64,000 nucleotides of DNA from Pseudorhodobacter sp. (GCA_024642045.1 JAHEBX010000001.1:17590-81589); one strand, 5' to 3'; shown: positions 2,094 to 24,326, numbered from the stretch's first letter. Translations and numbers: made by a program. Notes: a model not told the origin generated them from the letters alone.

Positions 2094-2096
2094 GGC

Positions 2097-6056: not shown

Positions 6057-6085
6057 TTGACAGATATGGAACGTTCCATTAGTTA
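6057..6085 (+). promoter_or_regulatory. Sigma70-type promoter of the afr operon
   Basis: TTGACA (6057-6062), 17 nt spacer, TAGTTA (6080-6085); 32 bp before the ATG at 6118. Confidence 0.65.
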
Positions 6086-6100
6086 TTTTGGAACGTTCCA
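6066..6100. promoter_or_regulatory. Tandem LacI-type operators
   Basis: Perfect palindromes ATGGAACGTTCCAT (6066-6079) and TGGAACGTTCCA (6089-6100), central CG, centres 22 bp apart. Confidence 0.8.
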
Positions 6101-6117: not shown

Positions 6118-7122
6118 ATGATTTGGGCGCTGATCGGGGCAAGCACGATTGCCAGCCAGTATATGGTGGATGCTTTGCGCGCCCAGCCCGCGGGCACTGT
6201 CCGCTGGATTATATCTGGCACTGCGGTGCGGGCGGCCGAGTTTGCCGCGGCGCATGACATTCCATATTCAGACACCCATCTGGCGGCGGCTCTGGATGAT
6301 CCGGCCGTTCAGGCCGTCTATATCTCTTCTACCAACGATCGGCACATGGATCAGGCTTTGGGCGCTATTGCTGCTGGCAAGCATGTGCTGTGCGAAAAGC
6401 CGCTTGCGCTGACCGCAAAGGATGCCGCGCAGATCGTTGCGGCGGCAGAGGCTGCCGGTGTGGTCTTTGCCACCAACCATCACCTGCGTTGTGCGGGCAG
6501 CCATCAGGCGGTGCGCGCGCTGATCCACGCAGGACGGATCGGGCGCGTGTTGTCGCTGCGAATTCATCACGCCGTGCATTTGCCGGAAAATCTGCAGGGC
6601 TGGCGGATCAATTCGGCGGCTTCGGGCGGTGGTGTCGTGCCTGATATCACCGTGCATGACGCAGATGTCGCGCGGTTTCTGTTGGGCGAAGACCCGCAGA
6701 GCGTGGTGGCACAAGTGACGAGTTCCGGTTTGGGGCAGGGGGTGGAAGATTCCGCCATGTCAGTCTGGGCCATGCCTTCGGGCGCGATGGTGATGAGCCA
6801 TGAAAGCTTTACTCACCCCTTTGCGGGCTCGGGGCTTGAGGTCCACGGCACAGAAGGCTCGATCTTTGCGCGCGGGGTGATGACGCAGCAGCCGGTGGGC
6901 GAGATTGAGATGGTCACTGCCAAGGGCCGCGAGGTGGTGCGCTTTGAGGCGCATAACCTCTATCAATTTGGCGTTGCGCGGTTTTGTGACGCGGTTGCGG
7001 GCCGCGGGGGCGTGGCGGCGAGCGGATGGGACGGCGTAAAATCCCTTGCGGTGGCCGAGGCCGTACGCCAGGCCGCAGCGACGGGTGCCCAAGTTTCCGT
7101 GGGGTATGGGGTGGCGCCATGA
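6118..7122 (+). CDS. afr: Gfo/Idh/MocA oxidoreductase, 1,5-anhydro-D-fructose reductase-like
   Basis: WALIGASTIA, VYISSTN, GKHVLCEKPLA, TNHHLR, LQGWR, DITVHDAD and EVHGTEGS match the recalled Sinorhizobium Afr sequence along its length. Confidence 0.78.
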   Translation: MIWALIGASTIASQYMVDALRAQPAGTVRWIISGTAVRAAEFAAAHDIPYSDTHLAAALDDPAVQAVYISSTNDRHMDQALGAIAAGKHVLCEKPLALTAKDAAQIVAAAEAAGVVFATNHHLRCAGSHQAVRALIHAGRIGRVLSLRIHHAVHLPENLQGWRINSAASGGGVVPDITVHDADVARFLLGEDPQSVVAQVTSSGLGQGVEDSAMSVWAMPSGAMVMSHESFTHPFAGSGLEVHGTEGSIFARGVMTQQPVGEIEMVTAKGREVVRFEAHNLYQFGVARFCDAVAGRGGVAASGWDGVKSLAVAEAVRQAAATGAQVSVGYGVAP

Positions 7123-8690
7123 GCAAGCTGGTATCCGCAGCCCAGGCCGTTGCCCACATCGAAGACGGCGCGGTTGTCACGGTGTCGTCCTCCTCGGCCT
7201 TGGGCTGCCCTGACCTTGTGCTGAAGGCCATTGGTGCGCGCTTTGACGACAGCGGACATCCGCGTGGATTGACCACAATCCATCCGATCGCTGCGGGGGA
7301 TATGTACGGTGTCAAAGGCGTGGATCACATTGCCAAAGACGGGCTGCTCACCCGGATTTTGGGCGGGTCTTATCCGTCGGGGCCGTCGTCGAAACCGATG
7401 CCCGCGATCTGGCAGATGATCGTTGAAGACCGCGTTGCGGCCTATAACGTACCCTCGGGGATCTTGTTCGACATGCACCGCGAGGCGGCAGCGCGTCGCC
7501 CCGGTGTTTTGACGCGGGTGGGTTTGAAAACCTTTGCCGACCCGATCCGCCAAGGCTGCGCGATGAACGATCTCGCGGCCAAAACCCCGATTGTGAACCG
7601 CGTCGAGTTTCTGGGCGAGACCTGGCTGCACTATCCCAACATCATCCCGACGGTTGCGATCTTGCGCGCAACCACGGCCGATGAGCATGGCAATCTGACC
7701 TACGAGCACGAAGGCGCCTATCTGGGTGGGCTGGAACAGGCGATCTGCGTGCGAAATCACGGCGGTCTGGTGATTGCGCAGGTTTCCCGCGTCACCAAGC
7801 GCGGGTCGCTGCGCCCGCATGATGTGCGCGTGCCGGGCCATCTGGTTGACCTGATCGTGGTTGACGCGGATCAAAAACAGACCTGTGAGACGCCCTATGA
7901 TCCGGCAATTTCCGGCCAGATCATGCGGCCGTGGGAAAGCTTTTCCTTGGCCGAACACGGGGTTGAAAAAATCATCGCGCGGCGCGCGGCGATGGAGTTG
8001 CGGCCCGGCATGACAGCCAATCTCGGCTTTGGTATTTCAGCGATGGTTCCAAGGATCCTGCTGGAAGAAGGTCATCCAGAGGCGGTGACTTGGGCGATTG
8101 AGCAGGGCGCTGTCGGCGGAATGCCTCTGACGGGCTTTGCCTTTGGGTGTGCGTCGAACGCTGATGCCTATGTGCCCTCGCCGCAGCAGTTCATCTATTT
8201 TCAGGGCGCAGGGTTTGACGTGTCGTTCCTGTCGTTCCTTGAGGTGGATATCGAGGGCAACGTCAATGTCTCCAAGCTTGGCAAAAAGCCTTACCTGACA
8301 GCGGGTTGCGGTGGGTTTGTCGACATCACCTCACATGCCAGAAAAATCGTCTTCTCAGGCTGGTTCGAAGCGGGGGCGGAGATTGAGTTGACCGACAAGG
8401 GTCTGCGCGTTGTCACTCCTGGCAAGTTCACCAAGATGGTCGAAGCGGTCGAACATGTCACCTTTTCGGGCGAGCGCGCCCGCGAGCAGGGGCAGGATGT
8501 GATCTATATCACCGAGCGCTGCGTGATGCGGATGGGCGAGCGGGGCATGGTGGCGACCGAAATCATGCCCGGAATTGACCCCGAGCGCGACATCGTTGCG
8601 GCAAGTCAGGGCCGCGTGTCGATTGCGCCGGATGCGATCACTTTGCCACTGTCGCTGCTCCGTGATGAGCCGATGGGGTGGGGAAGATGA
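7119..8690 (+). CDS. Family I acyl-CoA:acetate/3-ketoacid CoA transferase (YdiF/Pct-like, fused)
   Basis: GLKTFADP, ADEHGNL, NLGFGIS, catalytic E in IEQGAVGG, GCGGFVDI and YITERCV motifs. Confidence 0.88.
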   Translation: MSKLVSAAQAVAHIEDGAVVTVSSSSALGCPDLVLKAIGARFDDSGHPRGLTTIHPIAAGDMYGVKGVDHIAKDGLLTRILGGSYPSGPSSKPMPAIWQMIVEDRVAAYNVPSGILFDMHREAAARRPGVLTRVGLKTFADPIRQGCAMNDLAAKTPIVNRVEFLGETWLHYPNIIPTVAILRATTADEHGNLTYEHEGAYLGGLEQAICVRNHGGLVIAQVSRVTKRGSLRPHDVRVPGHLVDLIVVDADQKQTCETPYDPAISGQIMRPWESFSLAEHGVEKIIARRAAMELRPGMTANLGFGISAMVPRILLEEGHPEAVTWAIEQGAVGGMPLTGFAFGCASNADAYVPSPQQFIYFQGAGFDVSFLSFLEVDIEGNVNVSKLGKKPYLTAGCGGFVDITSHARKIVFSGWFEAGAEIELTDKGLRVVTPGKFTKMVEAVEHVTFSGERAREQGQDVIYITERCVMRMGERGMVATEIMPGIDPERDIVAASQGRVSIAPDAITLPLSLLRDEPMGWGR

Positions 8691-9454
8691 GCATGCTTCA
8701 CCTAATTCTCCGGGGTCAGATTGCCGAGCTGCGGCTGGATAACCCGCAAAAGATGAACGCCTTTACTGTCGAGATGCTGACCCAGCTGGCCGGTCATCTG
8801 GAGGCGATAGAGCGCGACGCCGGAATTCGCGCGGTGATGATTACCGCCGAAGGCAACCGCGCCTTTTGCACCGGCGCTGACATCAGCGCCTGGGCCAACC
8901 TGTCAGCGGTGGAATTTGCCCGTCATTGGGTGCGCGATGGCCACCGCATTTTCGACCGGCTTGCGCGGTTGTCCAAGCCGACCATTGCGGTGCTGAACGG
9001 TCATGCCTTTGGCGGCGGGCTGGAACTTGCTGCGGCCTGCGATCTGCGGGTAATGGCGCCCGACGCCAGTCTCGCCCTCCCCGAGGCTGGCGTCGGGATC
9101 GTGCCGGGCTGGTCGGGAACCCAGCGTTTGCTTCGGCTGATGCCCGAAGCCGTGATCAAAGAAATGGCCCTGTTTGGGCATCGCATTACGGCCGCGCGCG
9201 CCTTGGCGATGGGCTTTGTCGCGGCGGTTGACCCAGACCCGCGCGCGGCAGCTAGCGCGTTGCTGGACCGTGCCATCGGGCTGTCGCCACGCGCGGTTGA
9301 GATCACCAAATCGATGATCCACGCCAGCGCGGGCGAAGACCGCGGCGCTATGGTCGAAGCTTTGGGCAGCGCTGCGATTGCTGCAAGCGACGACCGCGAG
9401 GAAGGTGTCAGCGCCTTTCTGCAAAAGCGCAAACCTGAGTTTAAGGGGAACTGA
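8687..9454 (+). CDS. Enoyl-CoA hydratase/isomerase family protein
   Basis: AFCTGADI, GGGLELAAACD and LPEAGVGIVPG motifs (both catalytic Glu present); ATGA overlap. Confidence 0.9.
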   Translation: MSMLHLILRGQIAELRLDNPQKMNAFTVEMLTQLAGHLEAIERDAGIRAVMITAEGNRAFCTGADISAWANLSAVEFARHWVRDGHRIFDRLARLSKPTIAVLNGHAFGGGLELAAACDLRVMAPDASLALPEAGVGIVPGWSGTQRLLRLMPEAVIKEMALFGHRITAARALAMGFVAAVDPDPRAAASALLDRAIGLSPRAVEITKSMIHASAGEDRGAMVEALGSAAIAASDDREEGVSAFLQKRKPEFKGN

Positions 9455-9455
9455 C

Positions 9456-10988
9456 ATGCTTGACCTTACGGTGATCACTGAAGCGACGATTGCGGTGCCA
9501 AATAAACCCTATCGCGCCAGACACTTCATTGCGGGGGCCTATTGCAACAGCGCCGACGGGGCGGTTTCTGAACGCATTTCGCCGTCGCATGGGGTCGTCG
9601 CCAGTATCTCTGCCAAAGGCGGCGCAGCAGAGGCCGAGGCGGCTATTGCAGCGGCAAGAACTGCCTTTGACGATGGCCGTTGGAGCGATGTGCCGGCGCG
9701 TGCACGGGCGAAAGTTCTGAACAAGGTGGCCGATCTGATCGAGGCGAATGTAGAGCGGCTTGCTTTGATCGAAACCATGGAAACGGGCAAGCCGATCAGC
9801 CAGTCGCGCGGGGAATGTGGCGGCGCGGCGGACCTTTGGCGTTACGCAGCCTCGCTTGCCCGCACGTCGCACGGCGACAGCCATAACACCTTGGGCAAGG
9901 ACATTCTGGCGGTCGTGACCAAAGAGCCGATCGGGGTTGTTTCCATCATCACGCCTTGGAATTTCCCGTTCTGGATCCTGAGCCAAAAGCTGCCCTTTGC
10001 GCTGGCCGCTGGTTGTACCTGCGTTGTGAAGCCTTCGGAAATCACCCCATCAACCACCGCGATGCTGGCCGAATTTCTGATCGAGGCGGGGCTGCCCAAA
10101 GGCGTGTGCAACATTGTTCTGGGCGCTGGAAACCCCATCGGCAGCCTGATGAGCACGCATAGCGACGTGGATATGATCACCTTTACCGGCTCGACAGGCG
10201 TGGGCAAGATCATCAGCCAAGCGGCGGCGAATACGCTCAAAAAGGTTGCGTTGGAGTTGGGCGGAAAAAACCCGCAGGTGGTGTTTTCCGATGCCGATCT
10301 GGATCAAGCCGCAGACGCGATTGCCTTTGGCGTCTATTTCAACGTCGGGCAGTGCTGCAATTCCTCGAGCCGCATTATCGTGCATGAGGATATCGCCAAG
10401 GATCTGGTCGAGCGGGTGGTGGCCCTCACGCGGCATGTGCGTTTCGGCAACCCTCTCCATCCTGACACGCAGGTGGGCGCGATTGTAACGCCGGAACATA
10501 ACGGCTCGATTGACGCCCATGTGCGCGCGGCGGTGCGCGCGGGGGCGACGCTGCGGTTGGGCGGCGCGCCGATGGTGGTCGACGGCCTTGGCCAGCAGTT
10601 CTATCAGCCGACCATTCTGACGGGGGTCACCGCAGAGATGCCGATCGCCAGCAGCGAAGTCTTCGGTCCCGTGCTGACCGTGCTGACCTTTCGCACAATG
10701 GACGAGGCGATCGCGCTGACCAATGGCACCACCTACGGCCTTTCCGCCGGGGTCTGGAGCGAAAACGTTCACACCTGTCTTGAATTCAGCCGACGCGCCC
10801 AAGCGGGCACGGTCTGGACCAACACCTGGATGGACGGGTTTCCCGAACTCGCCTTTGGCGGGGTTAAGCAATCCGGCCAGGGACGCGAGATCGGCTCTTA
10901 CGGTTACGACGAATTCCTTGAGGTGAAATCGCACGTCCTGCGCATCGGTCGCACGCGCGCGCCTTGGGTGAAGACCCCGTCGGCCTGA
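9456..10988 (+). CDS. NAD-dependent aldehyde dehydrogenase, sorbosone dehydrogenase-like
   Basis: [25 protein letters not shown] catalytic Cys and EVFGP motifs; subfamily assigned from recalled similarity. Confidence 0.88.
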
Positions 10989-11032
10989 ATGCCGACGGAC
11001 CAAAAGACATAGATCAACTGGGAGGAAGTCTA

Positions 11033-12283
11033 ATGCGTATTATTGGAAAGAAGATGTCGGTGGTTCTGGCGCTTATGGCCAGCACCTCTATGGCGCAGGC
11101 CGAGGATGTCGAGGTGCTGCACTGGTGGACCTCGGGTGGTGAGGCGGCGGCGCTGGGTGTGCTGAAAGACACGCTGAAAAGCCAAGGCATCGGCTGGATC
11201 GACATGCCGGTTTCGGGCGGCGGTGGCGAGGCGGCAATGACCACGCTGCGCGCGCGTGTCACCGCGGGCAACCCACCGACCGCCGTGCAGATGCTCGGCT
11301 TTGACATTCAGGACTGGGCCGCCGAGGGGGCGCTGGGCAATCTGGATGACGTGGCCGCCAAGGAAGGATGGGACGCCGTCGTGCCCCCCGCGCTTCAGGC
11401 CTTTTCCAAGTATGACGGCCACTGGATCGCGGCCCCTGTGAACGTGCATTCGACCAACTGGGTCTGGGCCAACAAGGCGGTTCTTGATGGTTTGGGGATC
11501 GCTCAACCAACCACCTGGGACGAGTTTGTTGCCGCGATGCAAAAGGTCAAGGACTCGGGTAAAACGGCCTTGGCCCATGGTGGCCAGCCTTGGCAAGAGG
11601 CCACCGTGTTTGACGGCGTGGTGTTGTCGGTCGGCGGCACCGAGTTCTACAAAAAGGCCTTTGTCGATCTGGACCCAGAGGCTTTGGGTGGCGCGCAGAT
11701 GGTCGAGGCGTTCAAGCGGATGGAAACGCTGCATTCTTTCACTGACGCCAACTTCTCGGGTCGCGACTGGAACCTGGCCTCGGCTATGGTGATCAATGGC
11801 GATGCGGCCTTCCAGATCATGGGTGACTGGGCCAAGGGCGAGTTCCTGAAGGCGGGCAAAGTGCCGGGCACCGATTTCCTGTGCTTCCGCGTGCCGGGAA
11901 CGGACGGCGATGTCAGCTTCAACTCTGACCAGTTTGCGATGTTCAAGGTCGACTCTGAGGCAGCCAAGGCCGCACAGGCGCAAATGGCCGCAGATATTAT
12001 GTCGCCCACCTTCCAATCCGCGTTTAACGTGGTCAAGGGCTCGGTCCCGGCGCGCACCGATGTGCCAAATACCGCCTTTGACGATTGCGGCAAGAAGGGC
12101 ATGGCTGACCTTGCTGCGGCCTCTGCCTCGGGCAATCTGGTGGGGTCAATGGCGCATGGCCACGCCAACCGTGCTGCGGTCAAGAACGCGATCTATGACG
12201 TTGTGACGGCTGCCTTCAACGGCGAATACGACGCGGAAACGGCAGCCAAAAATCTGGCTGATGCCGTGGCGGCCGCCAAGTAA
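11033..12283 (+). CDS. CUT1 ABC sugar-binding protein 1 (GtsA-like)
   Basis: Signal peptide; [21 protein letters not shown] and [11 protein letters not shown] motifs; RBS GGAGG. Confidence 0.88.
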
Positions 12284-12289
12284 GACTGA

Positions 12290-12318
12290 TTGGGAAAGCG
12301 GCCGGCCCGCTTTCCCAA
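12290..12318 (+). terminator. Perfect 12 bp stem-loop after the binding-protein gene (mRNA-stabilising or attenuating)
   Basis: TTGGGAAAGCGG-CCGGC-CCGCTTTCCCAA. Confidence 0.6.
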
Positions 12319-12387
12319 ACCTGCCGCCCCCAAGCGGGCTTTTCAATTGCAAAGACATCTGTGCCGCGCACAGAAACAGGAGGAACC

Positions 12388-13284
12388 ATGGCATTTTCGA
12401 CCTCTGGCGTGGATATCCGTACCCGCCTTCAGGATTTGATCCCAAAATTGGTTCTGTCTCCGTCCATCGCGGCGATGATGATCTTCGTCTATGGCTTCAT
12501 CGTGTTTACCGTCTATCTCAGCTTTACCAATTCCAAGATGCTGCCCAGCTATGATCTCATAGGTTTTGAGAATTACGCCAAGCTTTGGGCGCTGTCGGCC
12601 TGGTGGACGGCGGTGAGCAACCTTGCGATCTTTGCCTCGCTTTATATCGTGATCTGCACCGCAATCGGACTGACACTCGCCATCCTGCTGGACCAGAAAA
12701 TTCGCGGTGAAGGGGTCTTGCGCCCGATCTACCTTTACCCGATGGCGTTGTCGTTCATCGTGACCGGCACAGCGTGGAAGTGGTTTCTCGACCCCGGAAT
12801 TGGTCTTGAAAATACCATGCACCTTTGGGGCTGGCAGAGTTTCCATTTTGGCTGGATCAAAGATCGTAACATGGCGATCTATACCATCGTCATCGCTGCG
12901 GTCTGGCAAACCTCGGGTTTTGTGATGGCGATGTTTCTGGCCGGGTTGCGCGGGATTGATAACGAAATCCTCAGGGCTGCCCAGATCGACGGGGCCTCTA
13001 ACTGGCAGCTGTATCGCCGGATTGTGATCCCGATGCTGCGGCCGGCCTTCATGTCGGCTTTTGTGATCCTCAGCCATCTGGCGGTGAAATCCTATGACCT
13101 TGTCGTGGCACTGACGGGTGGGGGGCCGGGGCGGGCAACCGAGCTGCCTGCGACCTTCATGTATTCCTATACTTTCACGCGAAATTCGATGGGTATTGGC
13201 GCTTCGAGTGCGGTGATCATGTTGATGACCATCGCGGCGATCATGACCCCTTACCTCTATGCTGAATTGAAGGAGAAGCCCTGA
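12388..13284 (+). CDS. Carbohydrate ABC transporter permease (GtsB-like)
   Basis: PKLVLSPS, multiple TM segments, EAA loop RAAQIDGA; RBS AGGAGG. Confidence 0.9.
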   Translation: MAFSTSGVDIRTRLQDLIPKLVLSPSIAAMMIFVYGFIVFTVYLSFTNSKMLPSYDLIGFENYAKLWALSAWWTAVSNLAIFASLYIVICTAIGLTLAILLDQKIRGEGVLRPIYLYPMALSFIVTGTAWKWFLDPGIGLENTMHLWGWQSFHFGWIKDRNMAIYTIVIAAVWQTSGFVMAMFLAGLRGIDNEILRAAQIDGASNWQLYRRIVIPMLRPAFMSAFVILSHLAVKSYDLVVALTGGGPGRATELPATFMYSYTFTRNSMGIGASSAVIMLMTIAAIMTPYLYAELKEKP

Positions 13285-14162
13285 TGTCTGGAGCAACCCA
13301 AGATACGGCGGTGCGGACCTCTGGCTTCTCCCGGACCCTGATTTACCTTGTGCTGTTGCTGTTTGCGCTGTTTTTCCTGCTGCCGTTCTTTGTGATGCTG
13401 GTGAATTCGCTGAAACCTTTGTCCGAGATTACCGGCGGCAATATGATGGCATTGCCGCAGCATTGGACGATCGAGCCGTGGCTTTCAGCGTGGTCCACAG
13501 CACAGATCGGCGTAGAGCCGACGGGGTTGAAACCCTATTTCGTGAACTCGATCATGATGGTGGTGCCGGCCGTCGCAATCTCGACCGTGTTTGGCGCGCT
13601 GAACGGATATGTGCTGACCAAATGGCGCTTTCGTGGCGATAGCATCCTTTTCGGCCTGATGCTCTTTTCCTGCTTTATCCCGTTTCAGATCGTGCTGATC
13701 CCGATGGCGATGGTCTTGGGCAAAATCGGCCTGGCCGGATCGGTGCAAGGCCTGGTGCTGGTCCATGTGGTCTATGGCATTGGGTTCACCACGCTCTACT
13801 ACCGCAACTATTACGCCTCGTTCCCGACCGAGCTGGTTCGCGCCGCGATGATCGACGGGGCAGGGTTCTTTCGCATCTTTTGGCGGATCATGCTGCCCGT
13901 TTCTGGCCCGATCACTGTGGTCTCGGTGATCTGGCAGTTCACCAATATCTGGAATGACTTTCTGTTCGGGGCCTCATTCGGCGGGCAAAGCCAGCCGATG
14001 ACCGTGGCCCTGAACAACCTCGTGCAATCCTCGACGGGCGTTAAGGAATACAACGTCCATTTCGCAGGTGCGATCCTTGCCGCAGTGCCAACCCTCTTTG
14101 TTTACATCGTTGCAGGCCGCTACTTTGTGCGTGGTCTGATGGCAGGAAGCGTCAAAGGATAA
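13284..14162 (+). CDS. Carbohydrate ABC transporter permease (GtsC-like)
   Basis: ELVRAAMIDGAG EAA loop, WQFTNIWNDFLF, GLMAGSVKG. Confidence 0.9.
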   Translation: MSGATQDTAVRTSGFSRTLIYLVLLLFALFFLLPFFVMLVNSLKPLSEITGGNMMALPQHWTIEPWLSAWSTAQIGVEPTGLKPYFVNSIMMVVPAVAISTVFGALNGYVLTKWRFRGDSILFGLMLFSCFIPFQIVLIPMAMVLGKIGLAGSVQGLVLVHVVYGIGFTTLYYRNYYASFPTELVRAAMIDGAGFFRIFWRIMLPVSGPITVVSVIWQFTNIWNDFLFGASFGGQSQPMTVALNNLVQSSTGVKEYNVHFAGAILAAVPTLFVYIVAGRYFVRGLMAGSVKG

Positions 14163-14261
14163 GGCGACCGTCAGGCAGTTGCAGCCGCCCGACGGTCTTT
14201 CGTTCAACCCTCAGCCCCGTTTGGAACAGACAAGGGCGAACTTTTGAAAAGGAACGACAAA

Positions 14262-15515
14262 ATGCGGCGAATGTCTATGGTCAGTTCACTTGTTTTTGGG
14301 GTGTTTGCCTCTCCCGCGCTTGCACAACCCTCTGTCGAAGTGATGCATTTCTGGACCAGCGGCGGCGAGGCGGCGGCCCTTGGCGCTGTGCGCGATAAGG
14401 TCGTGTCACAGGGCGTGGCATGGGTCGACGCCCCTATCGCAGGGGGCGGCGGCGATCAGGCCAAGACGGCGCTTCAGGCCCGTATTGCCTCGGGCAACCC
14501 ACCAGCGGCCATGCTGATGCTGGGTCAAAACATCATCGATTGGGCGCATGAGGGATTGCTTGGCAATGTCGATGCACTGGCCATGTCCGAAGGCTGGGAC
14601 GCGGTCTTGCCGCAGGCGGTCAAGGATTTCACCAAGATCGACGGCCACTATGTCTCGGTGCCGACCAACGTGCACCGCACCGATATGATCTGGGCCAGCA
14701 AAGCGGCCTTTGACAAGATCGGCGCGCCTTATCCGACAACATGGGACGAGATGAACGCGCTCGCCCCTCGGTTTCTGGCGGCGGGCATCATCCCCTTGGC
14801 GCATGGCGGCCAATCCTGGCAAGAGGCCTATATGTTCGAGGCCGTCGCAATGGGCATTGGGGGCGCCGATTTCTACCGCAAGGCGCTTGTGGATCTGGAT
14901 GACGCCAGCCTGCGCAGCGATACGATGGTTGCCGTGTTTGACGAGATGGCCAAGCTGCGCGGCATGGTCGACAGCAATGCCCCCGGGCGCGACTGGAACC
15001 TTGCCACCGCGATGGTCATCAAAGGTGATGCTGCCATGCAGATCATGGGCGACTGGGCCAAGGGTGAGTTTACCAACGCAGGCAAGACCCCCGGCACCGA
15101 CTACGCCTGCATCCCTGTGCCCAAGGCGAACGGCCAACCCGGCTTTGTGTATCTGGTGAACTCGCTGTCGCTCTTTGCCCAAACCAACCCCGAGGCGGTC
15201 AAAGCACAAGAGGTTCTGGCGAGTGCAATCATGGACAAGGATGTCCAGATTGCGTTCAATAAGGCCAAGGGTGCCATTCCTGCTCGCAATGACGTGGATA
15301 TGTCGGGACTGGATGCCTGCGCGCAAGCTACGGCAAAAGACCTGGCACAAGCTGATGCGGCTGGAACCGCGGTGCCAACATTTGCTGGCACCCATGCGGC
15401 CAACGCGGCCATCGTCGGGGCCGCGACCGATGCGATCACCGAGTTCTTCAACTCTGACGAGACGGCCCAAGAAGGTGCTGCCACTTTGGCGGATGCCATT
15501 CTGGCGGCAAAATAG
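14262..15515 (+). CDS. CUT1 ABC sugar-binding protein 2 (GtsA-like paralogue)
   Basis: Signal peptide; VEVMHFWTSGGE, GRDWNLA and [11 protein letters not shown] motifs. Confidence 0.86.
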   Translation: MRRMSMVSSLVFGVFASPALAQPSVEVMHFWTSGGEAAALGAVRDKVVSQGVAWVDAPIAGGGGDQAKTALQARIASGNPPAAMLMLGQNIIDWAHEGLLGNVDALAMSEGWDAVLPQAVKDFTKIDGHYVSVPTNVHRTDMIWASKAAFDKIGAPYPTTWDEMNALAPRFLAAGIIPLAHGGQSWQEAYMFEAVAMGIGGADFYRKALVDLDDASLRSDTMVAVFDEMAKLRGMVDSNAPGRDWNLATAMVIKGDAAMQIMGDWAKGEFTNAGKTPGTDYACIPVPKANGQPGFVYLVNSLSLFAQTNPEAVKAQEVLASAIMDKDVQIAFNKAKGAIPARNDVDMSGLDACAQATAKDLAQADAAGTAVPTFAGTHAANAAIVGAATDAITEFFNSDETAQEGAATLADAILAAK

Positions 15516-15525
15516 CCTGTCTGCT

Positions 15526-15549
15526 GGCCCCCGCCCTTCGGTGGGGGCC
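15526..15549 (+). terminator. GC-rich stem-loop after the second binding-protein gene
   Basis: GGCCCCCGCC-CTTC-GGTGGGGGCC (one G-U pair); no U tract. Confidence 0.45.
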
Positions 15550-15582
15550 GCTCAAATCGATCACCATAAGGACCGCAACATC

Positions 15583-16695
15583 ATGGGCTTTCTCGATATC
15601 AAAAACGTCACCAAATCCTATGGCAGCGTCAAAGTGCTGCACGAAGTGGATATCGAGGTGCAAGAGGGCGAGTTTCTGGTCCTTGTCGGGCCGTCTGGCT
15701 GCGGTAAATCCACGCTGCTGAACATGATCGCGGGGCTGGAGGTGATTTCCTCGGGCGATATTTCGATCAAGGGGCGGGTGATGAACGGCGTGCATCCGTC
15801 CAAGCGCAATATCGCAATGGTGTTCCAGTCTTACGCGCTTTACCCCAATATGACTGTGGGCCAGAACATGACCTTTGGTCTGGAAATGCACGGCGTACCG
15901 AAACCCGAGCGCGATGCGGCATTGGAGAAGGTCGCAGCGCTCTTGCAGATCACGCCCCTGTTAGAGCGTAAGCCAGGTCAGCTTTCAGGCGGTCAACGCC
16001 AGCGCGTGGCTATGGGGCGCGCGCTTGTGCGCAACCCGGATGTGTTTTTGTTCGACGAGCCGCTCTCCAATCTCGATGCCAAGCTTCGCGTCGATATGCG
16101 TACTGAAATCAAGAAGCTGCACGAGAAGCTCAAGACGACCATCGTCTATGTCACCCACGATCAGATCGAGGCCATGACGCTGTCGACCCGGATCGCGGTG
16201 ATGTATGCAGGCTATGTGCAGCAGCTTGGCACACCCAAGGAAATCTACGACACTCCTGCCAATGTCTATGTGGCAACCTTTATGGGCAGCCCCGCCATGA
16301 ACGTGTTGCCAGCGCACGTGCTGATGCAGGACGATGTTGCGCATGCACGGATCACTGATGCCAATGGGGCCGAGATACTGCTAAAAACGTCACAGCCCAA
16401 TTTGGCAGCTTGGGCGGGCAAAGAGATTTTGTTGGGCATCCGGCCAGAGGCAATCACTGATCCCGAAGGTGCGGACCGCAATTCCAAAAACATCGTGCCG
16501 TTGCGCAATCAGATCAGCGTGACCGAACCCGCCGGGGCGGATACCTTTGTCACCATGACACTTTGTGGCAAAGATGCCGTGGCACGGATGCGCGCCGATG
16601 TCAGCCTGCGCCCGAATGACAGCTTTGAGTTTGCGGTGAATATGGAAAAAGTCGTGGCCTTTGATCCCAAAACCGAAGACCGCATCAAGCCATGA
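15583..16695 (+). CDS. Sugar ABC transporter ATP-binding protein (MalK/GtsD family)
   Basis: GPSGCGKS, LSGGQRQR, FDEPLSNLDAKLR and YVTHDQ motifs, C-terminal TOBE region. Confidence 0.92.
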   Translation: MGFLDIKNVTKSYGSVKVLHEVDIEVQEGEFLVLVGPSGCGKSTLLNMIAGLEVISSGDISIKGRVMNGVHPSKRNIAMVFQSYALYPNMTVGQNMTFGLEMHGVPKPERDAALEKVAALLQITPLLERKPGQLSGGQRQRVAMGRALVRNPDVFLFDEPLSNLDAKLRVDMRTEIKKLHEKLKTTIVYVTHDQIEAMTLSTRIAVMYAGYVQQLGTPKEIYDTPANVYVATFMGSPAMNVLPAHVLMQDDVAHARITDANGAEILLKTSQPNLAAWAGKEILLGIRPEAITDPEGADRNSKNIVPLRNQISVTEPAGADTFVTMTLCGKDAVARMRADVSLRPNDSFEFAVNMEKVVAFDPKTEDRIKP

Positions 16696-18161
16696 CCCCG
16701 GATGTGATCATCATCGGGTCGGGCATGGGCGGGGCCACGCTGGCCGCAGCGCTTGCTCCTACGGGGCGGAGGATTCTGATCCTCGAGCGGGGCGCGCCCT
16801 TGCAACCCTCTGCTGCCGACCGCGACGCAAACGCAATCTTTGGGCGCGGGCAGTTTCGACCGAATGAGACTTGGTACGACGGCGAGGGGCGCGGTTTCAA
16901 TCCGGGCAACTATTATAACGTCGGCGGCAATTCGAAATTCTTTGGTGCGGTGTTTCTGCGCTATCGTTCTGAAGATTTCAGTCCGATCCAGCACCTTGAG
17001 GGGCGCACCCCCGGCTGGCCGATCAGCTATGATGATCTGGAGCCCCATTATCAGCGCGCCGAGACGATGTATCAGATCCGCGGCCAGTTGGGCCAAGACC
17101 CGAGCGAGCCTGCGCACTCGGGCCATTATCCCTATCCACCCGTTCCCGATGAACCCGCGATCGCTGATCTGCGCGCCAGATTGCAACGGCTGGGGCTGCA
17201 CCCCGCCTCATTGCCGCTTGGTGTGGATTTGGAAAAGTGGCTTGCAGGTGGGCAGACGACTTGGGACGCCTATCCCAACACGACCCAAGGCAAGATGGAT
17301 GCCGAAACCATCGGCATCGCCCAGGCGCTTCAGCACGCGAATGTGACGCTGCGCACGGGGCAGGCGGTGCGACGGCTGCTTGCTGACGCCTCGGGTCGCA
17401 TCAGTGGGGTCGAGCTTGAGGGCAGCGGCGAGGTCTTGCAGGCGCCCATAGTGGTGCTAGCCGCGGGTGCGGTGCAATCGGCCGTGCTCTTGCTGCGCTC
17501 GGGGCTTGCGAATTCATCCGATCAGGTCGGCCGCAATTTCATGAACCACAACACCTCGGCTGTGCTGGCGTTTCATCCGTTGCGGCGCAATCGGTCGGTT
17601 TATCAAAAGACGCTGATGGTCAATGATTTCTACCTCGGCGGCGGGCCGAAAAACGCGCCTTTGGGCAACATCCAGATGCTGGGTAAGATCACAGGCCCGA
17701 TTTTGACTGCGAATGCCCGCTTGCCTCGGGTTCTGGCGAACTTCATCTCGCACAGGACATTGGACCTTTATGCGATGTCCGAAGACCTTCCCGACCCGGA
17801 AAGCCGCATCATGCTGCAAGGCGAGCGGATCGTGATGGATTGGCGGCAAAAGAACTGGGCGGCGCATCTGGTGCTTGTGGCTAAGCTCAAGGCACTGCTG
17901 CGGCGGGCGGGCTATCCGGTTGTGCTTTCAAAGCCCTTTGACAGCCGCACGCCCTCGCATCAATGCGGCACCGCGCGGATGGGGCGCGACGGCACCGGCA
18001 GCGTTGTTGATATCTTTTGCCGCAGTCACGACCACCCCAATCTGTTTATCACCGATGCCTCGGTGTTGCCGACCTCGGCCGCCGTCAACCCGGCGCTGAC
18101 CATTGCCGCGCTGGCCTTGCGCGCGGCCGATCACATCATCGCTACCGATTTTGCTGCCTGA
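16692..18161 (+). CDS. GMC family FAD oxidoreductase 1 (sugar dehydrogenase/oxidase-like)
   Basis: IIGSGMGG, VGGNSKFFG, SHQCGTARMG and VNPALTI (His/Asn pair); no signal peptide. Confidence 0.85.
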   Translation: MTPDVIIIGSGMGGATLAAALAPTGRRILILERGAPLQPSAADRDANAIFGRGQFRPNETWYDGEGRGFNPGNYYNVGGNSKFFGAVFLRYRSEDFSPIQHLEGRTPGWPISYDDLEPHYQRAETMYQIRGQLGQDPSEPAHSGHYPYPPVPDEPAIADLRARLQRLGLHPASLPLGVDLEKWLAGGQTTWDAYPNTTQGKMDAETIGIAQALQHANVTLRTGQAVRRLLADASGRISGVELEGSGEVLQAPIVVLAAGAVQSAVLLLRSGLANSSDQVGRNFMNHNTSAVLAFHPLRRNRSVYQKTLMVNDFYLGGGPKNAPLGNIQMLGKITGPILTANARLPRVLANFISHRTLDLYAMSEDLPDPESRIMLQGERIVMDWRQKNWAAHLVLVAKLKALLRRAGYPVVLSKPFDSRTPSHQCGTARMGRDGTGSVVDIFCRSHDHPNLFITDASVLPTSAAVNPALTIAALALRAADHIIATDFAA

Positions 18162-18177
18162 AGACTGGAGACGCCTC

Positions 18178-19764
18178 GTGCCCGAAGGATTTGATTTCAT
18201 TGTGATCGGCGGCGGATCGGCAGGCTCGGTCGTGGCGGCACGGCTGACCGAGAACCCTTTGGTCAGCGTGTTGCTGATTGAGGCAGGCGGGCGCGACCGC
18301 CATCCGTTTTATCACCTGCCTGCGGGCTTTGCCAAAATGACCAAAGGCATCGGGTCGTGGGGCTGGGAAACCACGCCGCAAAAGCACATGCAAAACAAGG
18401 TGTTCCGCTATACCCAAGCCAAGGTGATCGGCGGCGGGTCTGCGATCAATGCGCAGATCTATACCCGTGGCAACGCCCAGGATTATGACGAGTGGCGGCA
18501 GATGGGCTGCACCGGTTGGGGCTATGACGACGTGCTGCCCTATTTCCGCAAAGCCGAGGATAACGACACCTTTGACAATCGCTTTCACGGCAAGGGCGGC
18601 CCGCTGGGAGTCAGCCAGCCGATAGCACCCCTGCCGATCTGCGAGGCTTATTTCGAGGCCGCGGCCCAGATCGGCATTCCGCGCAACATGGATATCAACG
18701 GCGAGACGCAGGACGGCGTTTGCTATTACCAACTGACCCAACGCCACGCGCGCCGCTCTTCGGCGGCGATGGCCTATCTTGCGCCGAACCGTGGCAGGCC
18801 GAACCTGACGGTGAAAACCGGAGTCGAAGTCCGCCGCCTGATTGTGACTGCGGGCCGTGCCACTGGGGTGGAACTGATGGACGGCCGTCAGTTGATGGCG
18901 GCGCAAGAGGTCGTGCTGTCCAGCGGTGCTATCGGCACGCCGCGCCTGTTGCAGCTTTCGGGGATTGGACCCGCCGATCATCTCCAGGCCCTCGGGATCA
19001 AGGTCGTTTTCGATCAGCCGCAGGTCGGTGAAAATCTGCAAGACCATCTGGACCTTTACTGCATCGCCGAGCTTTCTGGGCCCTACAGTTATGACCGCTT
19101 TGCCAAGCCGCATCTGGCGGCACTGGCGGGTCTGCAATATCTTTTGCAACGCAAGGGGCCTGTGGCCTCGTCGCTGTTTGAAACCGGTGGCTTTTGGTAT
19201 GCCGACCCCGATGCGCGCTCGCCGGACATTCAGTTTCATCTTGGCCTTGGCACAGGGATCGAGCATGGCGTGGTTGCCATGCCGCAAGGGGGCATCACAT
19301 TGAACTCGTGCTATTTGCGCCCGCGTTCACGCGGGTCGGTGCGGCTGCAATCGGCGGATCCTGCGCAGATGCCGTTGATCGATCCGAATTATCTCTCTGA
19401 TCCCGTTGACCGCGAGATGTCGATCCGTGGCCTGAAACTGACCCAGCAAATCCTGTCGCAACCTGCGCTGAAAGACTTTGTCCTTGCCCAACGGTTGCCC
19501 GGCCCCGAGGTGAAAACCGAGGCGGATTACTTCAACTTTATCAGCCAACATTCGAAAACTTCGCACCATTGCGCCGGCACTTGCCGCATGGGCGCTGATG
19601 CGGCGGCAGTGGTTGATCTGCAGTTGCGCTTTAACGGCATTGCGGGGCTGCGCATTGTCGATAATTCAATTATGCCAAAGGTGATTTCGTCCAATACCAA
19701 CGCGGCAGCGATCATGATCGGCGAAAAGGCTGCCGATATGATCAAAGCCCAGCATGGAGCCTGA
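18178..19764 (+). CDS. GMC family FAD oxidoreductase 2 (choline/sorbose dehydrogenase-like)
   Basis: IGGGSAG, GGGSAINAQIYTRG, VGENLQDH, HHCAGTCRMG and SNTNA motifs; GTG start with GGAG RBS. Confidence 0.88.
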   Translation: MPEGFDFIVIGGGSAGSVVAARLTENPLVSVLLIEAGGRDRHPFYHLPAGFAKMTKGIGSWGWETTPQKHMQNKVFRYTQAKVIGGGSAINAQIYTRGNAQDYDEWRQMGCTGWGYDDVLPYFRKAEDNDTFDNRFHGKGGPLGVSQPIAPLPICEAYFEAAAQIGIPRNMDINGETQDGVCYYQLTQRHARRSSAAMAYLAPNRGRPNLTVKTGVEVRRLIVTAGRATGVELMDGRQLMAAQEVVLSSGAIGTPRLLQLSGIGPADHLQALGIKVVFDQPQVGENLQDHLDLYCIAELSGPYSYDRFAKPHLAALAGLQYLLQRKGPVASSLFETGGFWYADPDARSPDIQFHLGLGTGIEHGVVAMPQGGITLNSCYLRPRSRGSVRLQSADPAQMPLIDPNYLSDPVDREMSIRGLKLTQQILSQPALKDFVLAQRLPGPEVKTEADYFNFISQHSKTSHHCAGTCRMGADAAAVVDLQLRFNGIAGLRIVDNSIMPKVISSNTNAAAIMIGEKAADMIKAQHGA

Positions 19765-19765
19765 T

Positions 19766-20086
19766 ATGATCCGTCACATCGTTCTGATTAAATTTTCCGA
19801 AGGAGTCAGCGAGGCAAAAATCGCCGACCTTTTCACTGAATTGAAGCAGATTGAGAGCAAACTTGCCGGTCTGCGTGCCATAACGGCAGGGCGGAGCGAA
19901 AGCCCCGAGCAGATGGAGCGCGGCTATATGCACGGCTTTGTTGCTGATTTCGACAGCTGGGCGGATTTGCAGGCCTATCAGGACCACCCAGACCATCAGC
20001 TTTTGGGCAGCAAGCTGGTGGCCCATGCTGTGGGGGGCAAGGATGGGATCTTGTGCTTTGACCTTGAGGTGAACGAGACACGCTAA
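19766..20086 (+). CDS. Dabb family (stress-responsive alpha/beta barrel) protein
   Basis: MIRHIVLIKF, GYMHGFVADF and AYQDHPDH motifs; start 1 bp after the GMC2 stop. Confidence 0.8.
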   Translation: MIRHIVLIKFSEGVSEAKIADLFTELKQIESKLAGLRAITAGRSESPEQMERGYMHGFVADFDSWADLQAYQDHPDHQLLGSKLVAHAVGGKDGILCFDLEVNETR

Positions 20087-20191
20087 CAGGCCAGAAAGTA
20101 TTTCGTTACTCAGGTTGTTGTTTCACCCAAGAACAAAAAGCGTCACAGTCAGTCTGAGAACCTGAGCGACGTGACCGGAGGCCGACGATTC

Positions 20192-21208
20192 ATGACTGCT
20201 GATCGCAGACCGACCATCATAGATGTCGCGCATAAGGCGGGGGTTTCAAAATCGACAGTCAGCCTCGTGCTGCAAAACAGTGCATCGGTGCGCGAAGAAA
20301 CCCGTGTCTTGGTGCGGCAAGCTATGGCGGATCTGAGCTATGTCTATAACCGCGCAGCGGCCAATATGCGGATGTCGAATGCAGGCCTGATTGGTCTTGT
20401 GATCAATGACTTGCGCAACCCCTTCTTTACTGAATTTGCAACATCCTTGCAGATGGCGCTTTCGGCGCGCGGCTATGCCGTCGTGATCGCCAATACCGAT
20501 GAAGACGCCGGTTTGCAGGCGCGCACCATTGGCACAATGATTGAACATGGCGTGTCGGCCTTTATCATCTCGCCTGCCTACGGCGAAGTCGTGCCCGCCT
20601 TTGACGCGATGTTGCGCGCGGGCGTTCCGACAATGCAGGTCCTGCGTAAGGTTGATGGCCGAACCGGGCAGTTTCCCTTTGCCGGGCCCAACTACCCAGA
20701 GGGCAGCACGCTTGCAACGCGGCATCTTTTGGCGCAGGGCGCACGGCGGATTGCCTTTGTCGGCGGGCTTGCGGGGCGCGCGGTAACTCAGGAACGCATG
20801 TCGGGGTATCTGGAGGTGCTGCGCGCCGAAGGGATAGAGCCGCTGGTTCTGTCTGGAAAATCCTCACGCGCCTTTGGCCGCGAGATGGCGCATCAGCTGG
20901 CGCAGCAACACCCCGACTGTGATGCGGCACTTTGCTTTAACGACCTGGTGGCGCTGGGCATGTTGGTTGGGTGTAACGAGCTGGGTCGCAAGGTTGGGCC
21001 AAATTTCAAGATCGTCGGCTTTGACGACATCGAAGACGCAGCGCAAGCCTTTCCAACACTCAGCTCGGTGCGCTGCGATGTGGCGGGGTTTGGTCGACAG
21101 ATCGCAGCGACCGTCTTGGACTGGCTGGAAAACGGCGTGGTGCCCGCCGCCGAAAGCCGATCTGTCGTGCAATTGATCGAGCGGCAGTCCAGCACCACTG
21201 GGGCCTAG
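20192..21208 (+). CDS. LacI family transcriptional regulator
   Basis: PTIIDVAHKAGVSKSTVSLVL HTH, YVYNRAAANMR hinge, NPFF and VGFDDI motifs; RBS GGAGG. Confidence 0.93.
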   Translation: MTADRRPTIIDVAHKAGVSKSTVSLVLQNSASVREETRVLVRQAMADLSYVYNRAAANMRMSNAGLIGLVINDLRNPFFTEFATSLQMALSARGYAVVIANTDEDAGLQARTIGTMIEHGVSAFIISPAYGEVVPAFDAMLRAGVPTMQVLRKVDGRTGQFPFAGPNYPEGSTLATRHLLAQGARRIAFVGGLAGRAVTQERMSGYLEVLRAEGIEPLVLSGKSSRAFGREMAHQLAQQHPDCDAALCFNDLVALGMLVGCNELGRKVGPNFKIVGFDDIEDAAQAFPTLSSVRCDVAGFGRQIAATVLDWLENGVVPAAESRSVVQLIERQSSTTGA

Positions 21209-24282: not shown

Positions 24283-24326
24283 TGGAACGTTCCAATTGCT
24301 ATAGACGCGATAACACATCAGGTCAA
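24283..24326 (-). promoter_or_regulatory. Sigma70-type promoter plus third LacI-type operator for the flavoprotein-kdgK operon
   Basis: Minus strand TTGACC (24326-24321), 17 nt, TATAGC (24303-24298), then TGGAACGTTCCA (24294-24283). Confidence 0.75.

Follow-up and report, generated by a model that had tools for sequence, protein, structure and literature searches.

The 64,000-nucleotide stretch of Pseudorhodobacter sp. DNA considered here (GCA_024642045.1, JAHEBX010000001.1:17590-81589), the whole of which we call the window, lies on contig C157 of a 265-contig assembly and contains, at positions 7119-9454, a gene for a fused coenzyme A (CoA) transferase (CoAT) followed by a gene for an enoyl-CoA hydratase (ECH) of the crotonase superfamily. 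The two genes stand directly behind a gene resembling that of 1,5-anhydro-D-fructose reductase (AFR) and directly ahead of an aldehyde dehydrogenase (ALDH) gene, in a sugar-type operon, where their products may act together as a CoA-activated dehydratase of sugar acids. The head of this operon, named here after afr, holds the following features:

6057..6100, plus strand: promoter-like TTGACA-N17-TAGTTA with two exact palindromes, TGGAACGTTCCA, at 6067-6078 and 6089-6100
6118..7122, plus strand: Gfo/Idh/MocA oxidoreductase (PF01408/PF02894), AFR-like, a homologue of 1,5-anhydro-D-fructose reductase
7119..8690, plus strand: fused (alpha+beta) family-I CoA-transferase, YdiF-like, 523 aa (PF01144)
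8687..9454, plus strand: crotonase-superfamily enoyl-CoA hydratase/dehydratase, 255 aa (PF00378)
9456..10988, plus strand: NAD(P)-dependent ALDH of the sugar-aldehyde (L-sorbosone dehydrogenase-like) type (PF00171)

Conserved junctions and extent of the afr operon

An earlier note on this DNA had described afr, the CoAT gene, and the crotonase gene as joined by ATGA overlaps, with the ALDH gene starting 1 bp later, and both statements are borne out when the sequence is read. The CoAT ATG starts at 7119 and overlaps the TGA (7120-7122) of the Gfo/Idh/MocA gene, giving ATGA at 7119-7122; likewise, the crotonase ATG starts at 8687 and overlaps the CoAT TGA at 8688-8690 (ATGA 8687-8690). The crotonase stop codon, TGA 9452-9454, is followed by a C at 9455 and the ALDH ATG at 9456, i.e., by a spacer of 1 nt. 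Because 4-base overlaps are common in the source genome (further ones lie at 3347, 16692, and 22143), such an overlap alone means little: a single one is ordinary, whereas its conservation is not.

This conservation was followed in the best 80 of 512 CoAT relatives, obtained in a scan with one genome per species; the CoATs of this set, from Rhodobacterales and Rhizobiales, are 82-91% identical, and their loci were compared gene by gene. The CoAT/ECH junction is an NTGA overlap in 80/80 loci (78 ATGA, 2 GTGA), and the crotonase gene directly follows the CoAT gene in 79/79. An AFR-like gene lies directly upstream of CoAT in 56/78 loci, the AFR/CoAT junction is a 4-nt overlap in 58/60, and the ECH-ALDH spacer measures 0-3 nt in about 70/75. 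In almost every locus with sufficient flank, the genes for ALDH, an ATP-binding cassette (ABC) importer, and two GMC flavoenzymes (GMC1 and GMC2) come next. Among the enzymes encoded here, CoAT is conserved best, with a median identity of 84%, followed by ECH (76%), ALDH (73%), AFR (69%), and GMC1 (67%). The locus is widespread, occurring in marine and freshwater Rhodobacterales and in plant-associated Rhizobiaceae. The CoAT/crotonase arrangement is thus conserved and not a product of chance, and in more than 80 genomes the pair is an obligate and co-regulated component of an operon of sugar type.

Downstream of the ALDH gene, the unit continues as follows:

11033..16695, plus strand: CUT1-type ABC importer (open reading frames, SBP_bac_1; exact starts uncertain), consisting of the next four entries
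about 11033-12283, plus strand: substrate-binding protein 1 (SBP1)
about 12388-13284 and 13284-14162, plus strand: permeases
about 14262 (or 14244) to 15515, plus strand: second, paralogous SBP, between the permeases and the ATPase
about 15583-16695, plus strand: importer ATPase
16692..18161, plus strand: GMC1, related to the catalytic subunits of FAD glucose dehydrogenase and fructose dehydrogenase
18175..19764, plus strand: GMC2, choline-dehydrogenase-like (start uncertain)
19754..20086, plus strand: Dabb (dimeric alpha/beta-barrel) protein (PF07876), a conserved companion gene
20171..21208, plus strand: LacI-family repressor of the locus
21205..22146, minus strand: PfkB kinase, KdgK-like (2-dehydro-3-deoxygluconokinase-like), co-regulated with the afr operon
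22143..24224, minus strand: 693-aa flavoprotein of the SdhA/NadB superfamily, mutually exclusive with DUF993 in relatives
24283..24294, no strand assigned: a third exact match to the palindrome TGGAACGTTCCA, located upstream of the operon for the flavoprotein and the kinase

The plus-strand order is therefore AFR-like, CoAT, crotonase, ALDH, SBP1, two permeases, second SBP, ATPase, GMC1, GMC2, Dabb, and LacI, with the KdgK-like kinase and the SdhA-like flavoprotein on the minus strand. The palindrome occurs in three exact copies in the window, compared with 0.12 expected by chance, and the afr operon starts with the segment 6057-6100, which is presumed to bind the LacI-type repressor of the locus. 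Since the copy at 24283 lies upstream of the kinase operon, the kinase is taken to be co-regulated with the afr operon, so that the afr unit extends from 6057 to about 21208 and includes the minus-strand pair at 21205-24224. A scan for terminators and promoters inside the operon gave nothing above the shuffled expectation.

The location of the pair inside a sugar operon, as claimed in the earlier note, holds in the sense that the operon is of sugar type; it is, however, the afr operon starting at 6057-6100, and not the L-threonate cluster upstream. A link with the L-threonate genes (1203-4767) was considered and is ruled out by the 428-bp gap, which holds the afr operon's own promoter and operators, and also by the 80 related loci, none of which (0/80) has such genes within 10 kb. 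The same note had reported that the locus lacks thiolase and acyl-CoA dehydrogenase (ACAD), and had concluded that the pair does not act in beta-oxidation. A search of the whole assembly agrees on both counts, with no match to PF00108 (Thiolase_N) or PF00441 (Acyl-CoA_dh_1) among the locus genes or anywhere on C157, all matches lying on other contigs. The operon is accordingly not a fatty-acid beta-oxidation operon, in which ACAD and thiolase would be encoded together with the hydratase.

Catalytic residues and substrate pocket

CoAT has the fused family-I CoA_trans fold of the YdiF/SCOT type, and its alignment with E. coli YdiF (PDB 2AHU, 322 bits) spans residues 4-520. Its Glu328, within IEQGAVGG, takes the alignment position of the Glu in the ETG motif of YdiF and in the SENG motif of SCOT (succinyl-CoA:3-ketoacid transferase), and is followed by a GCGGFVDI motif (GxGGF); both Glu328 and GxGGF are invariant in 85/85 CoAT orthologues. 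CoAT thus retains the family-I catalytic glutamate, i.e., the residue that forms the enzyme-CoA thioester. E. coli YdiF is the closest solved structure and shares the fused family-I build, the catalytic Glu, and the GxGG motif, whereas in identity there is a clear gap between it and the clade of the window. This gap is seen across 401 genomes sampled evenly from the phylum, in which the CoAT matches, sorted by identity, fall into two groups with nothing between. The group at ≥60% identity (~23 genomes) comes from the window's own family, from another whose clusters are Rhizobiaceae-like, and from a single beta-proteobacterial one; the group at ≤44% consists of generic YdiF-like proteins, E. 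coli YdiF among them.

The best PDB match of the crotonase is the 3-hydroxypropionyl-CoA dehydratase of M. sedula (Ms3HPCD, 5ZAI), with 168 bits and 38% identity. The residues A64, G110, E113, and E133 map onto A65, G110, E113, and E133 of Ms3HPCD; G110, E113, and E133 are invariant in 84/84 crotonase orthologues, and position 64 holds Ala (82 orthologues) or Gly (2 orthologues). Since the oxyanion hole (A64/G110) and both catalytic glutamates (E113/E133) are kept, the protein is classed as a true hydratase/dehydratase rather than an enzyme of the hydrolase or isomerase type.

The substrate pocket of Ms3HPCD is formed by F70, F81, Y142, and W232 (PMC6048173). By homology mapping, the equivalents in the window are W69, W81, W142, and S228. 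The three tryptophans and His86 are invariant in all 84 orthologues and paralogues, including paralogues at 43-47% identity, and position 228 is always Ser, Gly, or Ala. No deletion is found relative to Ms3HPCD, i.e., the 2-residue deletion of long-chain ECHs is missing, consistent with a tight alpha3 helix. The pocket is thus predicted to be short-chain and aromatic in type and not clearly polar, with a small residue where Ms3HPCD has the one closing the bottom, and the conserved signature of W69/W81/W142 with a small residue 228 implies a dedicated substrate. A compact, ring-sized polar substrate and a small hydroxyacyl group would suit such a pocket equally. Stacking on Trp is typical of sugar sites.

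The other enzymes of the operon give the pair a sugar context. The AFR-like protein scores 313 bits to PDB 2GLX, the S. morelense 1,5-anhydro-D-fructose reductase, as well as 307 bits to 4KOA. ALDH matches 3U4J, an NAD-dependent ALDH, with 514 bits and the L-sorbosone dehydrogenase 7W5L, which is its best characterised relative, with 482 bits. GMC2 scores 547 bits to the choline dehydrogenase subfamily, and its best PDB matches are the chloramphenicol primary-alcohol (C3-OH) oxidase 8B7S, choline dehydrogenase, and alcohol oxidases, making it a candidate primary-alcohol oxidiser that could supply ALDH. GMC2 and ALDH together look like a pair that converts a sugar CH2OH via CHO to COOH, as sorbose and sorbosone dehydrogenases do, whereas GMC1 is a candidate oxidiser of the ring, i.e., of a secondary OH. 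The kinase has 2-dehydro-3-deoxygluconokinase (4E69, 282 bits) as its best PDB match, and an Eda aldolase is encoded in the source genome. No dehydratase of the enolase-superfamily, IlvD/Edd, or UxuA type occurs in the locus, where all genes from 6118 to 24224 are assigned to other families.

Two side observations concern these genes. First, the second SBP is ~50% identical to SBP1, and its close orthologues (77-80%) are found in only ~9/80 related loci; its presence suggests that two related substrates are taken up through one transporter. Second, some loci carry extra genes between ALDH and the first SBP gene, which were considered as possible hidden dehydratases and rejected, as they encode a second LacI-family regulator on the opposite strand (L015, L020, L056, L060, L077, L125, and L126).

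Related clusters and their variable module

An afr-type cluster was found beside leuB in an annotated Sinorhizobium meliloti record, a 3.7-Mb replicon labelled pSymB. Its genes encode, in order, LacI, '1,5-anhydro-D-fructose reductase', CoA-transferase, enoyl-CoA hydratase, ALDH, ABC importer, GMC, a short-chain dehydrogenase/reductase (SDR), and GMC, with a 'dihydrodipicolinate synthase family' gene upstream. Identities to the window are 65% for CoAT, 44% for ECH, 54% for ALDH, and 74% for the SBP (against SBP1). The afr locus of S. meliloti and S. morelense (2GLX, 4KOA), in which AFR is the only characterised gene, therefore has the same gene order as the window; the S. meliloti copy differs in belonging to a divergent clade and in carrying SDR and DUF993 where the window has the SdhA-like flavoprotein and the KdgK-like kinase. 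Judged by its AFR orthologue, its LacI gene with shared palindromic operators, and its synteny with S. meliloti, the operon of the window is assigned to the afr (1,5-anhydrofructose utilisation) type of locus, or AfrR-type regulon. A Paraburkholderia replicon shows the same layout as the S. meliloti cluster, and CoAT, ECH, and ALDH are present in every AFR cluster examined, including these two.

The S. meliloti genes presumably bear the locus tags SMc04390-SMc04401, as the position beside leuB suggests, with SMc04399 as the probable CoAT gene and SMc04398 as the probable crotonase gene. The SBP gene of the cluster, smc04396, is reported to be induced by dextrin (PMC4960864), and beyond this induction nothing was found in the literature on the function of the CoAT, the crotonase, or the SMc0439x genes.

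The module downstream of the pair is variable. Most lineages (Rhizobiaceae, Burkholderiaceae, and many Rhodobacterales) have SDR and DUF993, sometimes with a glycerate kinase, whereas in the variant of the window both SDR and DUF993 are absent and the SdhA-like flavoprotein and KdgK-like kinase are present. The exclusivity of the two modules was examined in 12 genomes carrying the CoAT/crotonase pair (that of the window, G116, G120, G132, G220, G278, G295, G308, G329, G332, G344, and G374): DUF993 occurs in 9 and the SdhA-like flavoprotein in the remaining 3, each genome having exactly one of the two, and SDR adjoins DUF993 in the DUF993 genomes with examined flanks. This pattern looks like a non-orthologous replacement of the downstream module. 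The gene that the NCBI genome annotation calls 'dihydrodipicolinate synthase family protein' corresponds to Pfam DUF993; the idea that this neighbour is a known aldolase for 2-keto-3-deoxy-D-gluconate (KDG) was dropped, as it has no NCBIfam match at an E-value limit of 1e-10 and its Pfam family is DUF993, and an aldolase function is a guess at the level of the family. A minimal cluster (L118) consists of DUF993, LacI, and CoAT-ECH-SDR. Together, the variants identify CoAT-ECH as the core that stays constant within a family of catabolic clusters of sugar type.

A paralogous cluster was observed on plasmid p7 of Sagittula sp. MA-2 (L084, NZ_CP126152.1; also L119 and L120), with a CoAT 60% identical to that of the window. 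It contains a CUT2-type sugar ABC system, a zinc alcohol dehydrogenase, ALDH, a GMC2-like protein, two aldo-keto reductases, and CoAT-ECH-Dabb, together with a MaoC hydratase, an acryloyl-CoA-reductase-like ACAD, SDR, DUF993, and a xylose-isomerase-like TIM protein. Its substrate, handled by the same CoA core, is probably a different one, perhaps a deoxy-sugar. The Dabb gene, which in the window overlaps the end of GMC2 by 11 nt, directly follows the crotonase in the Sagittula paralogue and accompanies the CoAT/ECH core in every cluster type seen.

A possible CoA-dependent route for anhydro-sugar acids

Our favoured reading places CoAT and the crotonase in a catabolic operon that is under LacI control, serves sugars of the 1,5-anhydro-hexose type, and corresponds to the Sinorhizobium afr locus; in this operon, a sugar acid would be dehydrated as its CoA thioester to a KDG-like 2-keto-3-deoxy acid. 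It is a tentative proposal, to which we attach a little under half of our belief; it is nonetheless plausible and the best available, with a CoA-activated sugar-acid dehydratase as the most economical role for the pair. Genes, families, and conservation form its basis, and from these we infer all the enzymatic steps.

In the usual case, metal enzymes dehydrate sugar acids in their free form, and a KdgK-type kinase requires a 2-keto-3-deoxy acid. Since the afr unit carries a KdgK-like kinase and a CH2OH-to-COOH pair but no classical dehydratase, CoAT and the crotonase are the only candidates for the alpha,beta-elimination, and would fill the role that UxuA-, ManD-, or IlvD-type dehydratases have in the classical sugar-acid pathways. 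The route would begin with an imported anhydro-sugar, which the AFR-like reductase would convert to a manno-configured alditol; GMC1 may first oxidise 1,5-anhydroglucitol to anhydrofructose. GMC2 and then ALDH would turn CH2OH into a carboxylate, giving a 2,6-anhydro-hexonate (oxidation of 1,5-anhydro-D-mannitol at C6 yields 2,6-anhydro-D-mannonate). The YdiF-like CoAT would put CoA on this acid, with the pathway's own product-CoA, or acetyl- or succinyl-CoA, as donor. In the thioester the alpha-H would be acidified, and the crotonase, by chemistry that is ordinary for its family, would eliminate the beta-hydroxyl to give a 2-alkoxy-2-enoyl-CoA, i.e., a vinyl ether, whose hydration, whether spontaneous or brought about by Dabb or another enzyme, would open the ring to a 2-keto-3-deoxy-hexonate. 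The CoA would be handed on to the next substrate molecule, and no ATP would be spent. From the manno configuration, the product would be 2-keto-3-deoxy-D-gluconate, which the KdgK-like kinase and Eda would lead into central metabolism.

The role as a CoA-activated sugar-acid dehydratase had been proposed in the earlier note, and the operon context, GMC2/ALDH, the kinase, and the retained catalytic glutamates all lend it partial support and make it the best reading of the genes. The second role offered there, that of a ring-opening module, does not fit the chemistry. Once C6 is oxidised, the thioester has the ring oxygen in its alpha and not in its beta position, so that the pair cannot open the ether ring alone; it would yield the vinyl ether, and an extra hydration would be required. 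Dabb is a candidate for this missing vinyl-ether hydration or tautomerisation step. The stereochemistry may also explain why AFR makes the manno isomer. C2 and C3 of the manno isomer supply the two stereocentres that are left, and the product would therefore be the D-erythro acid (KDG), whereas the gluco isomer would give the L-threo acid; D-mannonate dehydration by D-mannonate dehydratase likewise gives KDG. A more specific version, doubtful when taken as one joint claim, holds that 2,6-anhydro-mannonate is converted to KDG by a hitherto undescribed, CoA-dependent opening of the ether ring in aerobic alpha- and beta-proteobacteria, that a dedicated YdiF-clade transferase would form the 2,6-anhydro-hexonyl-CoA, that the Trp-lined crotonase would perform a 4,5-elimination by analogy with polysaccharide lyases acting on uronates, and that the purpose of the stereospecific AFR reduction would be to make the product D-erythro and not L-threo.

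Several points weigh against the proposed route. First, AFR is not beside CoAT in about a quarter of the loci. Second, with its short-chain pocket, tight alpha3, and three bulky Trp residues, the crotonase would accommodate a C3-C4 hydroxyacyl-CoA at least as naturally as a pyranose ring. Third, the kinase reaches 250 bits against the KdgK equivalog NF052444, below its 400-bit cut-off. Fourth, the reading gives no confident account of what GMC1, the SdhA-like flavoprotein, SDR, DUF993, and Dabb do, and an alpha-keto or vinyl-ether thioester would be an unusual intermediate. Fifth, Kuhn et al. (2006), according to the summary in PMC12441222, proposed that anhydromannitol is hydroxylated at C-1 to give mannose, for which no CoA is needed.

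Four other explanations have to be weighed. In the first, which is unlikely but stands ahead of the other three, the pair would take part in a beta-oxidation-like sequence acting on a sugar-derived acyl-CoA: the crotonase would act as a hydratase/epimerase, an SDR (here, the SdhA-like flavoprotein) would follow, and DUF993 would stand in for thiolase in cleaving a C-C bond, the product not being KDG. The minimal cluster, in which DUF993 and LacI accompany CoAT-ECH-SDR, would suit such a sequence, as would the Sagittula plasmid paralogue, where ACAD and MaoC are added beside CoAT-ECH-Dabb and SDR-DUF993; in addition, the SDR matches a '3-ketoacyl-ACP reductase' model, and the deoxyribonyl-CoA pathway of Klebsiella michiganensis (PMC6365646) provides a precedent. 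However, the variant of the window has neither SDR nor DUF993 and yet keeps CoAT/ECH, together with a KdgK-like kinase, and neither thiolase nor ACAD is found on the contig.

Less likely again is that the substrate is not a C6 sugar acid but a small C3-C4 fragment released later in the pathway, derived, e.g., from glycerate, 3-hydroxypropionate, malonate semialdehyde, or lactate. Among solved crotonases the nearest is a 3-hydroxypropionyl-CoA dehydratase, the pocket belongs to the short-chain aromatic type, YdiF-type transferases work on short acyl-CoAs, and in the cyclitol pathway of Anaerostipes, from inositol to propionate, a CoA-transferase acts on a C3 fragment (PMC8355322). On the other hand, all 84 orthologues have Ser, Gly, or Ala in place of the Trp232 at the bottom of the Ms3HPCD pocket, a change that makes the pocket larger; the locus encodes neither an enoyl-CoA reductase nor a CoA-acylating semialdehyde dehydrogenase, the ALDH being sorbosone-dehydrogenase-like; the pair is translationally coupled to AFR, the first enzyme of the pathway, at the head of the operon; and a dedicated substrate is what one would expect of a distinct CoAT clade so highly conserved across lineages.

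The third explanation returns to the 2006 proposal as summarised in PMC12441222, and we regard it as distinctly improbable. Oxygenation of 1,5-anhydromannitol at C-1 would yield mannose, and GMC2, ALDH, CoAT, and ECH would serve another co-imported substrate, e.g., one bound by the second SBP. The two paralogous SBPs of the window and the absence of AFR from about a quarter of the CoAT loci agree with this idea. Against it, the family assignments of the locus genes include no monooxygenase or P450, CoAT/ECH/ALDH accompany AFR in all the AFR clusters examined, those of S. meliloti and Paraburkholderia included, and the second SBP occurs in only a minority of loci. Finally, generic short-chain fatty-acid or ketone-body metabolism, by an acetoacetate or propionate CoA-transferase and a crotonase that came to lie in a sugar locus by chance, is suggested by database names ('propionate CoA-transferase', 'acetate CoA-transferase YdiF') and by FadX as the best NCBIfam match of CoAT, and is nevertheless highly improbable in view of a FadX score far under the cut-off (304 against 750 bits), synteny and start/stop overlap in 80/80 loci from two orders plus Burkholderiaceae, a promoter and operator common to the CoA and sugar genes, and a subfamily-specific pocket signature.

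CoA-dependent dehydration as such is known, and it is plausible that the pair represents this known, CaiB/CaiD-type kind of dehydratase in a new place, carbohydrate catabolism. In CaiB/CaiD (carnitine CoA-transferase and carnitinyl-CoA dehydratase), a CoA-transferase and a crotonase together remove water from the thioester of a beta-hydroxy acid, and the recycling of CoA costs no ATP; CaiB, however, is a family-III transferase, whereas the CoAT of the window is a fused family-I enzyme of the YdiF type in a sugar operon. A second such pair is AcuN/AcuK, for acrylate/3-hydroxypropionate, in which AcuN belongs to family III. For a ring substrate, the crotonase-family enzyme BadK, a cyclohex-1-ene-1-carbonyl-CoA hydratase, reversibly hydrates and dehydrates across ring C1-C2 with the CoA thioester on C1; BadK is likened here by reaction, not by sequence, and its substrate is a carbocycle of anaerobic benzoate degradation, without a ring oxygen or hydroxyls.

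The upstream steps resemble the FAD L-sorbose dehydrogenase and NAD(P) L-sorbosone dehydrogenase (SNDH, 7W5L), a GMC and ALDH pair that oxidises a sugar CH2OH via the aldehyde to the acid, with the difference that the end product there is 2-keto-L-gulonate, whereas the acid of the window would go on to CoA enzymes. The mannonate dehydratases UxuA/ManD and the IlvD/Edd enzymes reach the same net outcome as proposed here, i.e., conversion of a hexonate to a 2-keto-3-deoxy acid for KdgK and Eda; they do so through a metal-stabilised enolate of the free carboxylate, without CoA and with unrelated folds, and none of them is encoded in the locus. The deoxyribonate route of K. michiganensis (PMC6365646) handles a sugar acid as its CoA thioester and has a CoA-transferase and a glycerate kinase in its cluster, but it proceeds by way of a CoA-synthetase, a 3-hydroxyacyl-CoA dehydrogenase, and a thiolase, with no crotonase.

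According to a 2025 review (PMC12441222), Rhizobiaceae reduce 1,5-anhydrofructose to 1,5-anhydromannitol, the next enzyme, a proposed C-1 hydroxylase leading to mannose, is 'still unidentified', and no aerobic 1,5-anhydroglucitol (1,5-AG) pathway has been described. If true, the CoA-thioester route would be a new logic for carbohydrate catabolism and would fill a gap open since 2006, namely what becomes of 1,5-anhydromannitol and 1,5-anhydroglucitol under aerobic conditions once the AFR step is past. The locus would probably mark the use of common but overlooked environmental sugars that arise as starch/glycogen lyase products, by pyrolysis, or from C-glycoside breakdown. An oxygen-tolerant activity that degrades 1,5-AG would be of practical interest for lowering intestinal 1,5-AG in the neutropenia of glycogen storage disease Ib and G6PC3 deficiency (PMC12441222). 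Six or seven soluble enzymes would be enough for a direct test of the hypothesis.

Some minor observations were made outside the afr unit. The genes at 1203-4767, a separate unit, together look like the known L-threonate pathway. Three of them pass NCBIfam equivalog cut-offs, LtnD (L-threonate dehydrogenase) with 410 bits (cut-off 350), OtnK (3-oxo-tetronate kinase) with 523 (350), and OtnC (3-oxo-tetronate-4-phosphate decarboxylase) with 289 (250), whereas an OtnI-like (2-oxo-tetronate isomerase-like) gene stays below, with 246 against 325 bits. Upstream of these genes, at 64-1062, lies a ribose-type ABC permease, and a second dehydrogenase of the HIBADH family at about 4757-5689 could be of the D-erythronate dehydrogenase type. 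Lastly, near the afr-like cluster of Paraburkholderia largidicola PPGU16_p1 (L083), PLSDB labels positions 7687-8121 as 'VIM-73 beta-lactamase, identity 100%' (rgi prediction); the replicon is an environmental one of 2.3 Mb, and this automatic label looks doubtful.

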